Shown: positions 23,747 to 25,639 of the stretch, one piece after another
How the letters are laid out: the number at the start of each line of letters is the position of its first letter
How positions within the stretch are numbered: position 1 is the stretch's first letter
DNA from: Anaerolineales bacterium
Lineage (GTDB): Bacteria > Chloroflexota > Anaerolineae > JAAEKA01
DNA: 64,000 nt
Direction of reading: 5' to 3'
NCBI GenBank assembly: GCA_034432445.1
Contig: DAOUBX010000204.1
Location: forward strand, 2,143 to 66,142
Notes under the pieces: generated by a model
Seen by the model: the letters and a program-made list of their open reading frames with translations, nothing else
Told to the model about the DNA's origin: nothing
Database searches by the model: none
Program-made: the position numbers and the translations under genes

Positions 23747-25639
23747 TTAGCTCCAAACGAACTTCAAGGTTTGCACGCCGACGCTGACCGCGCTCTTGAA
23801 GCCTTCCCACGTGTTCAACCCTTTGACAAAGGTCAGCATGGGCCCGGGGCGGAAGGACCACTCGCGCGTGGCGCGCTTCTGCCAGTATTCGAGCTGCTCG
23901 GCGGTTAGACCGGTCTCGTGGTAATCCAGCACTGTCGATTGGTCCATGTCCACCTCTTCCCACTTGGTGCCGGGGCGGAACCAGCCGTTCTCCACCACCT
24001 CGAAGAAGAAGGGGGTGCCGGGGTAAGGCGCGGCGATGTGGAAGAGGGCGATGTCCAGCGGCAGCGACTTGCTGTATGCGATGGTCTCCTGGATGGTTTC
24101 CACGGTTTCGCCGGGCAAGCCGATGATGAAGTAACCCCAGTTCTTGATGCCGGCGGCCTTGGCCCAGCGCAGCGCGTCGTAGGCCTGCTGCTTGCGATAG
24201 CCCTTGTGTGCGCGCTTGAGGATCTGCTCGTTGGCGCTCTCGATGCCCCAGGAGATCAAGTAGCAGCCGGCCTGGCCCATCAACTGCAGCATCTCCTCGT
24301 CTACGTAGTCCACGCGGCTGTTACATGTCCAGCGCACCTTGAGGTTGTTCTGGATGATCAACTTGCATAGCCCGACCACCTGGTCGCGGTTGACGGTGAA
24401 AAGATCAGCATACATGTGGACGTTGTGAATGCCCAAACCGGCCAGCACTTGCAGCTCCTCGAAGATGTTCTCCGGCGAGCGCAGACGCACGCTGTTTTGG
24501 TAGCTCACATGCTTGATGCAGTACTTGCAGCCGGCCGGGCAGCCGCGGCTGGTGACGATGAAGGTAAACGGCCCCTTGATCATGGGCATGCGCTGCTTGT
24601 CGAGGGGCAAGAGATGATGCAAGGGGATGGGCAGGTCGTTCAGATCGGGGAAGAAGGGGCGGTCGCGGTTGATGATGATCTCGTCGTCGTACCGCCACGC
24701 CAGCCCGGGGATGTTGGCCAGGGGCAACTGGGCCGCCTTTGCCAGCGTTTCTGCCGGCACCCGCTCTACCGTCGAGACGGCGAAAGGGGAGAGGGATTGG
24801 TGAACGGTGAACGGTGACTCTGGCTCCTCGGTTCTGAGGATAGGCGCGCGGTTGGCCGTTAGCAGTATTGGCTCAGCGGTCAACGCCAGCTCGTTGCCCT
24901 GTTCCGACCTTTGTCGATTTTCCCGCGTTGCCTTGCCTTCCCTCACTCTCCCCCCTTCCGCCAGCGCCAGCCGGGTGTCGGCCACGATTTTAGCCACGCG
25001 CGGGTCGCTGGGCGTCTTGCCTTCAAAGGTGTCCAGCAGCTCGCGCAGTGTCGCCTCTGGTTCCCCGCGCAGCACGAGGTCTAGAGCAGGAAAGGGGCGC
25101 ATGGTTTCCAGAGTCATGGGGGTGACGTGGGTGCCGAAGGCCATGGTCTTGGCGCCCAGCGACTTGGCCAAGAAGACGCCGTACATATCGTTGCGCAGCG
25201 TGGGCGCTGTGACCTGGGTGAGGTAGTACTTGGGCCGTTTTTCGTCCAACAGCCGCTCGAACTCCGGCCAAGTCATACGGGTGGCGATGCAGTCCACCAC
25301 CTCCACGGTGTAGTCGGGCACGAGCAGCGCGGCTAGCTGTGCCAGGCTGACCTGCGGCCAAATCATGTTCTCGCGGCTGCGCCGGCCCACGCGGTGTTGG
25401 CTGCGGATCCAGATCCCGCCGTCGGGTGAGGGCGGGTTGACCAGCATCACGTCTACACTGCCGGCCGGCCGCGTGGACGAGGTGAGGGTTTGCACGGCCG
25501 CGCCGGCGTCCGGAAAGCTCGACGGTCGCAGCGGCGGCACCCGCCGCGTGCCCAGGTTGCGCTTCAGTTGTTCACCGCGATCATTGCTGCTATGATTCTC
25601 GTTGCTCATCTCTGATGGTCCTTTCCTGGGATTATCCAA
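23747..25639 (-). CDS. B12-binding radical SAM protein (DUF4070 C-terminus) carrying an in-frame repeat insertion
   Basis: Radical SAM CxxxCxxC = CPAGCKYC. N-terminal cobalamin-binding domain. C-terminal ...WEGFKSAVSVGVQTLKFVWS. An extra segment of about 60 aa (GKATRENRQRSEQGNELALTAEPILLTANRAPILRTEEPESPFTVHQSLSPFAVS) lies between the B12 and radical SAM domains. Confidence 0.8.
   Translation of the reverse strand: MDNPRKGPSEMSNENHSSNDRGEQLKRNLGTRRVPPLRPSSFPDAGAAVQTLTSSTRPAGSVDVMLVNPPSPDGGIWIRSQHRVGRRSRENMIWPQVSLAQLAALLVPDYTVEVVDCIATRMTWPEFERLLDEKRPKYYLTQVTAPTLRNDMYGVFLAKSLGAKTMAFGTHVTPMTLETMRPFPALDLVLRGEPEATLRELLDTFEGKTPSDPRVAKIVADTRLALAEGGRVREGKATRENRQRSEQGNELALTAEPILLTANRAPILRTEEPESPFTVHQSLSPFAVSTVERVPAETLAKAAQLPLANIPGLAWRYDDEIIINRDRPFFPDLNDLPIPLHHLLPLDKQRMPMIKGPFTFIVTSRGCPAGCKYCIKHVSYQNSVRLRSPENIFEELQVLAGLGIHNVHMYADLFTVNRDQVVGLCKLIIQNNLKVRWTCNSRVDYVDEEMLQLMGQAGCYLISWGIESANEQILKRAHKGYRKQQAYDALRWAKAAGIKNWGYFIIGLPGETVETIQETIAYSKSLPLDIALFHIAAPYPGTPFFFEVVENGWFRPGTKWEEVDMDQSTVLDYHETGLTAEQLEYWQKRATREWSFRPGPMLTFVKGLNTWEGFKSAVSVGVQTLKFVWS
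24781..24965. repeat. Composite GA-rich / GTTCACC-heptamer repeat block inserted in-frame inside the B12-radical SAM CDS
   Basis: Plus strand reads GGGGAGAGGGATTGG-TGAACGG-TGAACGG-TGAC ... CCTTCCCTCACTCTCCCCCCTTCC. It is flanked by inverted purine-rich blocks and built from the same units as the yfhO insertion at 46570-46750. Confidence 0.6.

Follow-up and report, generated by a model that had tools for sequence, protein, structure and literature searches.

Within a 64,000-nucleotide (nt) stretch of contig DAOUBX010000204.1 from an Anaerolineales bacterium (hereafter the window), the gene for a B12-binding-type radical SAM protein (rSAM) contains an in-frame segment at 24781-24967 that carries (GGTGAAC)x2.7 and inverted purine- and pyrimidine-rich ends. 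We consider it likely that this segment is composite selfish repeat DNA lying in a permissive interdomain linker, that it is passively translated, and that it also holds a tiny mobile element that targets heptamer arrays. The original prediction for this DNA had recognised an in-frame repeat segment inside the B12/radical SAM gene with the reading ...ILRTEEPESPFTVHQSLSPFAV..., and this was correct, the open reading frame (ORF) being intact over 630 amino acids (aa). The gene and the parts of its insert are the following (TRF, Tandem Repeats Finder; TIR, terminal inverted repeat):

23747..25639, minus strand: B12-binding-type radical SAM gene, intact 630-aa ORF, host of the insert
24707..24790, minus strand: clade-specific conserved extension SPFAVSTVERVPAETLAKAAQLPLANIP, separate from the fast-evolving repeat
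24779..24800, plus strand: purine-rich block GGCGAAAGGGGAGAGGGATTGG, the left 'TIR' of the original prediction; its coding strand reads QSLSPFA and it overlaps the conserved LSPFA codons
24791..24967, minus strand: hypervariable in-frame linker insert ALAEGGRVREGKATRENRQRSEQGNELALTAEPILLTANRAPILRTEEPESPFTVHQSL, aa 225-283
24799..24817, plus strand: heptamer array (GGTGAAC)x2.7 (TRF, 100% matches); on the coding strand GTTCACC units, giving SPFTVH
24818..24845, minus strand: 28-nt nested element, on the coding strand GCCTATCCTCAGAACCGAGGAGCCAGAG, translated PILRTEEPE
24846..24935, minus strand: remainder of the insert; by eye, decayed heptamers in the same orientation (GCCAACC, GCTAACG, GCTGAGC, GTTGACC and others), then non-repetitive sequence
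24936..24962, plus strand: pyrimidine-rich block CCTTCCCTCACTCTCCCCCCTTCC(GCC), the right 'TIR' of the original prediction, from a scan for purine/pyrimidine runs; its coding strand is purine-rich, AEGGRVREG

The decayed heptamer units at 24846..24935 are a tentative assignment, and the period-7 signal across the whole rSAM variable region is weak (0.38 vs 0.31 at other lags). Peptides predicted from the open frame of the insert include APILRTEEPESPFTVHQSLSPFAVSTVER and SPITVHR.

The same modules are found in a second, unrelated gene of the window. With at most one mismatch allowed, the window has 8 occurrences of the 12-mer GGTGAACGGTGA where 0.21 are expected, and 7 of them lie in the rSAM insert and in the insert of a gene for a YfhO-like membrane glycosyltransferase. 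The claim that two unrelated genes carry in-frame DNA of the same modules was thus borne out. Position 35266, considered as a third heptamer locus, was dropped because it holds a single 12-mer with a mismatch. The second host is composed as follows:

45953..48580, plus strand: YfhO-like membrane glycosyltransferase gene, 875-aa ORF (Pfam YfhO, E 7e-10)
46569..46749, plus strand: in-frame insert in a YfhO loop, made of a purine block, octamer/24-nt repeats and a heptamer array
46569-46624, plus strand: purine-rich block of this insert, including (GAGGGAAAG)x4.6 at 46574-46614
46610-46676, plus strand: TAGACAAG octamer / 24-nt repeats, coding for GRQVDK-type repeats
46703-46749, plus strand: heptamer array (CGTTCAC/CGATCAC)x6.7 (TRF), coding for RSPITVHRSPITVHRS

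The CGTTCAC unit is the reverse complement of GGTGAAC in rotated phase, so that the proposed relation between the two heptamers (TRF GGTGAAC x2.7 vs CGTTCAC x6.7) holds; the array at 46703-46749 is the sole strong period-7 tract of the 64 kb. As to the likeness of the two inserts as a whole, their sense-to-sense local alignment scored 38 vs 17.4 +/- 2.5 for shuffles (0/1000). When the heptamers were removed, only the purine-rich blocks still aligned (27 vs 18.8 +/- 2.9, 22/1000). The pairwise similarity that had been predicted is therefore significant, but it is confined to a purine-rich block and the heptamer array. That the whole 185 nt is shared as one unit, as was implied, could not be confirmed: no second copy of the whole segment was found by blastn in the window and 1.4 Mb of related loci, where only heptamer matches and a 48-nt core match were obtained.

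Beyond the window, the heptamer is a dispersed repeat. A motif search, a check that the original prediction had suggested, was made here in species-representative genomes and was positive, with GGTGAWC x3 in at least 119 stretches across phyla, many of them in Gemmatimonadales; the Caldilineales metagenome-assembled genomes (MAGs) SKYG74 and DTUCFX11 hold several such arrays per genome. In a crude census of perfect arrays, 107/139 had no spanning ORF and 32/139 had one. All 32 arrays in open frames (32/32) have GWTCACC as the sense strand, which reads VHRSPFT in every frame, whereas GGTGAWC gives a TGA stop in every frame. Intergenic examples are L016, L032, L036, L046, L063 and L067 (collected loci carry L numbers and collected proteins P numbers), and inverted array pairs are frequent (L020, L021, L032, L051). 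For the hairpin of L016, which is intergenic, the fold has z = -5.6, and coding copies are weaker (L207, -2.6; window, -1.3). G- or pyrimidine-rich blocks adjoin the intergenic arrays in L056 and L067. The window's only two heptamer arrays in 64 kb are both inside genes, as opposed to the mostly intergenic arrays of related genomes. A literature search gave no description of such arrays in Chloroflexota, which is not proof of absence.

Two loci of the Caldilineales MAG SKYG74 deserve separate mention. In L050, at 1780-1890 and 6880-7070, a giant non-ribosomal peptide synthetase (NRPS) ORF has an inverted heptamer array in each of two adenylation domains, both in the same loop from ...PDPF to Y(K/R)TGDLVRW. 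In L056, at 1872-2095, a direct repeat of ~100 nt with the palindrome GGAGTTCGCACGTGGGCGTGCGAACTCC stands beside heptamer arrays and a pyrimidine-rich block, and may be another family travelling with the arrays.

To describe the insert site of the rSAM protein, orthologs were compared. The best matches of the 630-aa protein are B12-binding radical SAM proteins from Caldilineales (Chloroflexota), and the Pfam Radical_SAM domain covers aa 361-520. The nearest solved structure is AprD4 (6fd2), whose alignment begins at aa 299; the insert (aa 225-283) is therefore placed directly upstream of the rSAM core. Among 39 aligned orthologs, the protein is near-invariant on either side of the insert site and the length after VADT[KR]L goes from a few residues to ~130. 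In the best 120 ortholog clusters, the distance between the anchors RGEPE and GLAWR is 43-152 aa (median 57), and the frame is intact at 30 of the 31 rSAM loci that hold both anchors. The site is thus hypervariable, but the predicted segment reached too far at its LSPFA end, which is conserved in 21/39 orthologs. The pattern SPFA/TPFA...ERV...SPLA is kept in these 21 and absent in the remaining ones, so that the SPFAVSTVERV...PLANIP portion is not junk. An AlphaFold2 model built from the 39-sequence alignment was poor overall; it gives the insert a predicted local distance difference test score (pLDDT) of ~30 without secondary structure, and short helices predicted at aa 288-309 have its best local confidence. 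Protein splicing, by an intein or otherwise, was dropped as a candidate, since the insert has no conserved sequence or length.

Over short times the rSAM insert is stable. In three assemblies of a 99%-identical strain (L200-L202) it is the same as in the window, with zero indels; 3/18 nucleotide differences between the window and this strain fall inside the 187-nt insert, a rate not below that of the rest of the gene. Over longer distances its boundaries and content differ in every ortholog examined, and both number and type of units vary. In the case of L205, the linker begins with a GGGGAGGGGGGAGG purine block, continues with GGTGAAC/GGTGATC units and ATTAACC/ATTCACC units and ends with a TTTCCTTTCCCTTTCCCCCTTC pyrimidine block, forming an imperfect palindrome; its sense-strand GGTGAAC arms are interrupted by CGGTTG/CGGTTA variants, by which the TGA that a perfect array has in every frame is avoided. 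L208 has a similar arrangement of modules, L207 has three GGTGATC-type units and, after them, a long GATCACC/GTTCACC array, and L203 has GTTAACC-type units. Another long GTTCACC-type array is intergenic in L207, at 9803-9912 just upstream of the rSAM start codon. In the more distant lineages L124, L126 and L152, other heptamers occupy the same linker (lag-7 identity 0.53-0.61). A metagenome scan with the rSAM alignment gave mostly distant orthologs among the matches listed.

The YfhO loop behaves similarly, with 0 to ~55 extra aa at the insert site among aligned orthologs and a variable stretch of 23-78 aa in 106 YfhO clusters. In relatives, this loop reads HRSPITDHR or FTVHRS. The RQVDK repeat peptide recurs in the YfhO orthologs P0121, P0123 and P0127, so that the TAGACAAG/GRQVDK module is older than the species. 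In distant Anaerolineae, the YfhO loops show GGCAAAT x3, read as GKWQMAN; TGGAAGC, read as WKLEAGN, GGGGTCA-type units and HQPSAIS repeats also occur in YfhO/rSAM loops (P0166, P0173, P0177; L124, L126, L152). Since heptamers of other families are thus translated at these same loops, in-frame heptamer arrays seem to be general in this phylum.

Two YfhO loci are interrupted at the insert. In L213 (2780-3040; GCA_041391245.1, a Caldilineales MAG), a frameshift within the purine-block/heptamer insert divides the ortholog between two ORFs that overlap; the conserved VASWLPWV and SLAWAALGG are in different frames, and one more 7-nt unit would restore the frame. In L212 (1-170; JGI Ga0394871_0022188), the contig breaks off within the YfhO insert and the called protein P0143 begins just past it. 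The repeats appear to break assemblies and gene calls. P0235, tried as a second gene split at the insert, was rejected, being only C-terminally truncated.

The part of the rSAM insert that behaves most like a mobile unit is the 28-nt nested element, copies of which were sought in all collected nucleotide sequence and, via six frames, in the collected proteins. The rSAM insert peptide PILRTEEPESPFT recurs as PILRTDEPGSPFT in the YfhO-ortholog insert of another genome (P0121; L206), and blastn aligns the rSAM insert with L206 over 48 nt at 92% (E 1.5e-11), with a core of 28 nt at 24818-24845. In the rSAM ortholog L120, the element lies opposite to the gene orientation within a GGGGAGC array and reads GPGLAGSEDRR; in the YfhO orthologs L209 and L211, it is in a third reading frame, LSSEPASQ. 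Altogether there are five independent or semi-independent copies (window, L206, L120, L209, L211), which are identical at 23-27/28 positions, have the same boundaries, and are spread over two gene families, two orientations relative to the gene, three reading frames and two heptamer unit types. Aligned, the copies all read ...CCGC TC GCCTATCCTCNGAACCGNNRAGCCNGRG TC (A/C)CCG... within heptamer arrays, and in each case the element runs in the direction of the array's YCNCCGY strand. On the coding strand, the window copy is flanked by TC at 24816-24817 and, to the left, by GC at 24846-24847, where the other copies have TC.

An empty site was also detected. L210 (P0133) reads ...TTCACTGT TC ACCGTCCC..., and the filled site of L211 reads ...TTCACCGC TC [28 nt] TC ACCGCTCAC...; compared with the filled L209 and L211, L210 is exactly 30 nt shorter, at a heptamer boundary. 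Insertion is the simpler reading of this pair, because a slip between the heptamer repeats on either side would cost 37 nt and not 30. In L203/L204, whose rSAM is 85% identical, the orthologous spot has GCCTATCC followed by CGTTAACC; this amounts to the first 8 nt of the element with heptamers after them, and the 8 nt look like what a 24-nt in-frame deletion would leave. In L203, around 10700, GCCTATCC followed by CGTTAACCGTTAGCC was seen at the position orthologous to the window's element.

The window has one copy of the element, and none is present in its own YfhO insert. The 28-mer was not found in viral contigs, and Rfam matched no family on 24600-25150. A whole-library phmmer search with the 34-aa insert peptide gave only a chance match to the unrelated repetitive protein P0241, and no candidate came from a word-indexed search of proteins for which two sequences of the element peptide had been aligned.

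These observations can be joined in a proposed mechanism. GGTGAWC/GWTCACC arrays are lineage-wide in Chloroflexota, are present also in Gemmatimonadota and other phyla, and are usually intergenic; often two inverted arrays fold into a hairpin that is bordered by G- or purine-rich blocks. They would grow, shrink and decay via replication slippage and via conversion between arms or arrays. Their survival in genes would demand a place where added residues do no harm and an orientation free of stop codons; permissive sites of this kind would be one loop of YfhO and, in rSAM, the linker after VADT[KR]L, both repeatedly colonised by arrays of differing units. The 28-nt element GCCTATCCTCNGAACCGNNRAGCCNGRG would insert at a unit boundary of YCNCCGY arrays, in an orientation fixed relative to the array, and would bring with it a 2-nt TC duplication or else enter as a 30-nt unit. 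In this way the element, or a copy of it, would have passed from the array of one gene to that of another, by an agent acting in trans or by recombination using the heptamers as homology. At the protein level the effect would be passive, the insert being an unstructured spacer with the open frame as sole constraint, and the host gene would become frameshift-prone as a side effect.

Within this explanation, the status of the 28-nt element is a claim of its own. It may be truly mobile, which would place it among the smallest mobile elements known and make it the first of the small dispersed repeat (SDR) type outside cyanobacteria; it would target heptamer unit boundaries in Caldilineales with fixed orientation and a 2-nt duplication. 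We put forward this possibility tentatively, at a little short of an even chance. The original prediction had spoken of a mobile or recombinogenic mini-element tolerated in coding DNA. Something mobile or recombinogenic does appear to be tolerated there, but the unit that behaves as mobile has 28 nt and not 185 nt. The evidence for its putative mobility (five copies, one empty site, two gene families) is good but thin, and its standing as a family is provisional, since only five copies are known.

Several points weigh against the proposed explanation. The five copies were all reached via the two gene families studied, so that the element census has an ascertainment bias, and no intergenic copy was seen. 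The window and L120 copies share the same linker and could stem from one event moved between arms; likewise, the YfhO copies could be one ancient event. The L210 site could be a deletion, which is less simple than an insertion given that its flanking direct repeats predict a 37-nt loss and not 30. The hairpin architecture of the window copy has no statistical support (fold z = -1.29; arm p ~0.08 given composition), the mean pLDDT of 50.5 is too poor to establish disorder of the insert, and its translation is deduced from the intact frame.

Among the other explanations, the one that survives best, although we judge it unlikely, is that the heptamer tracts are contingency loci: by gain or loss of 7-nt units, the rSAM-dependent modification of glycan or the glycosyltransferase YfhO would be switched on and off. 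Both hosts belong to the surface-glycan genes, the unit length is no multiple of 3 (6.7 units in the YfhO tract), a tendency to slip has been reported for heptameric simple-sequence repeats (PMC4692102, PMC4679880), and YfhO of L213 is frameshifted inside the insert in such a way that one added heptamer would restore the frame. This last case is a hint only, as it could be real slippage or a repeat assembly error. Against phase variation, the rSAM tract has just 2.7 units, the CGTTCAC/CGATCAC alternation in YfhO lowers slippage, 30/31 rSAM loci are in frame, and identical tracts of the same length are found in four assemblies of 99%-identical strains (window, L200, L201, L202). Moreover, arrays also occur in NRPS adenylation domains and are mostly intergenic, so that they have no special link to surface genes.

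We regard as quite improbable that the insert was co-opted, be it as a spacer whose length matters for the cobalamin and rSAM domains on its two sides or as a hairpin in the mRNA at which translation pauses. Some insert is present in all members of the subclade together with the conserved SPFA...ERV...SPLA extension, the frame is kept open (30/31 rSAM loci with both anchors), and hairpin potential is retained in some coding copies (L207, z = -2.6). Length (43-152 aa) and sequence are, however, unconstrained among close relatives, and a linker of hardly any length is enough for many orthologs (P0030 and similar). The RNA fold of the whole window insert is no better than that of shuffles (z = -1.29), and with 3/18 of the differences from the 99% strain the 187-nt insert changes at a rate not below that of the rest of the gene.

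That the whole ~185-nt segment is a classical miniature inverted-repeat transposable element (MITE), mobilised by a transposase and landed in frame in two genes, seems very unlikely to us. The size of the segment fits, similar end blocks stand beside arrays in orthologs (L205, L120) and intergenic copies (L056, L067), and the TIR-like blocks of the original prediction are both present: the arms at 24779-24793 and 24948-24962 are complementary at 13/15 positions, a score equalled in only 7/2000 whole-segment shuffles. When each end was shuffled separately, keeping its purine or pyrimidine bias, the score was equalled in 154/2000 cases (p ~0.08), and sliding windows across the 64 kb reached it in 61/9115. 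The 'TIR' therefore appears to be mostly compositional, in the main an inverted purine/pyrimidine bias. One arm is conserved LSPFA coding sequence (21/39 orthologs), the outer borders of the segment show no target-site duplication (the flanks GAGACG / AGCGCC have no direct repeat), neither the window nor the 1.4 Mb of loci has a second full-length copy, the YfhO insert has no matching right end, and boundaries and content vary in every ortholog.

Least probable of all is an ordinary fast-evolving, low-complexity disordered linker of in situ origin with a chance or compositional likeness to YfhO: interdomain linkers are commonly variable, the AlphaFold2 model has no structure at the insert, and heptamers aside the window inserts share only a borderline purine-rich stretch (22/1000), but the heptamer count (8 vs 0.21 expected), the insert alignment (38 vs 17.4 +/- 2.5), the intergenic arrays and hairpins made of the same heptamer in related genomes and the non-repetitive 48-nt match (92%, E 1.5e-11) to the YfhO insert of another genome stand against it, and given this match and the aligned element copies such drift appears largely refuted. 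The original prediction was right in placing the phenomenon at the DNA level and not in ordinary protein evolution.

Comparable repeats are known from other bacteria. Heptameric repeats include the cyanobacterial short tandemly repeated repetitive sequences (STRR), GGGAATC in Xanthomonas and GGGGA(C/T)T in Nostoc (Rehm et al. 2015, PMC4692102), as well as TAACTGA in Beggiatoaceae and Cyanobacteria, which can be translated in one orientation and runs into stop codons in the other (MacGregor 2015, PMC4679880). For the growth and decay of heptameric simple-sequence repeats, slippage has been proposed (PMC4692102, PMC4679880). The arrays described here resemble these repeats in their 7-nt tandem units, which are mostly intergenic and often form inverted stem-loop pairs, in their strong length and sequence variation between close relatives, in their patchy distribution across phyla and in their one translatable orientation. 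As in STRR, the units run head to tail (TRF) and copy number and sequence vary between relatives. They differ in their GGTGAWC unit, in their hosts (Caldilineales/Chloroflexota, Gemmatimonadota), in their purine-rich outer blocks, and in being found in conserved enzymes as hypervariable in-frame inserts in the same loop across many orthologs.

In the case of the 28-nt element, the closest parallel is with SDR4-6 of Nostocaceae, which Elhai and co-workers reportedly described in 2008 with lengths of 21-27 nt. The small dispersed repeats of Elhai 2008 are cited in PMC3116915 and PMC2884548, and according to PMC5861425 no SDR-like repeat was found outside Nostocaceae. Like those repeats as reportedly described, our element is tiny, has no coding capacity, occurs in dispersed near-identical copies with insertion polymorphism, is nested in repeats and has a short target. 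Its ends are conserved in two gene families and several genomes, with both filled and empty sites. As differences, its sequence is probably unrelated to theirs, it belongs to another phylum, its target is the heptamer unit boundary, and all the copies seen are in translated DNA. Membership in the Nostocaceae families SDR1-8 is unlikely, the phylum being different.

Rickettsia palindromic elements (RPEs; Ogata et al. 2000, 2002) are summarised in PMC10969869 as in-frame insertions in unrelated housekeeping genes that are translated and tolerated at permissive positions. They are defined palindromes of ~100-150 bp with many copies and a conserved peptide per family. The present inserts are similar in being in frame and leaving the host ORF intact in rSAM, YfhO and NRPS genes. 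In contrast to RPEs, the large unit is made of simple heptamers and is not conserved as a whole; only its 28-nt core is. A conserved palindrome and peptide are lacking, with a fold z = -1.29 and no full-length sequence common to both hosts. REPINs, repetitive extragenic palindromic (REP) elements and MITEs are short, non-autonomous, hairpin-forming intergenic repeats that spread within genomes (Bertels & Rainey 2011, PMC3116915; PMC10969869). From these the large unit differs by having no conserved terminal repeats or target duplications and by stems that consist of tandem heptamers.

If the proposed explanation is true, arrays inside genes would allow the 28-nt element to be written into proteins in several reading frames, and heptamer arrays would be both landing pad and vehicle for selfish DNA entering coding sequence. 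A permissive loop together with a stop-free orientation would be the route by which non-triplet repeats and a nested mini-element persist in conserved enzymes. This would be a concrete case of selfish DNA in coding sequence outside Rickettsia, and it would extend very small mobile repeats, so far known only from Nostocaceae, to Chloroflexota, with heptamer arrays as their target. It would also account for odd low-complexity peptides (SPFTVHR, TDHRSPI, VNGERL, GKWQMAN...) across predicted Chloroflexota proteins.

Regarding the surroundings of the two hosts, the rSAM gene is part of a cluster for cell-envelope glycan that also includes a GT2, a hexapeptide acyltransferase and a gene of the Wzy_C/O-antigen-ligase-like type, and this synteny is present in L200, L203 and L204. 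Next to yfhO, the DUF6909 gene abuts at 45950-45960 in the window with no module in between. Between the same two genes, L206 has an AAA_21/AAA_15 ATPase and DUF4276 (5184-6466), and L213 has a Phd/YoeB toxin-antitoxin pair (1649-2219). Elsewhere in the window, purine/pyrimidine-rich runs of 20-29 nt, e.g. TGGAGGGAGAGGGGGGAAGGGAGGT, are found at 27947-27971, 38913-38941 and 59422-59441 with no heptamers nearby, and a tandem repeat that is unrelated to the heptamers, with a 33-nt unit x2.8 (TRF score 102), lies at 59984-60076.

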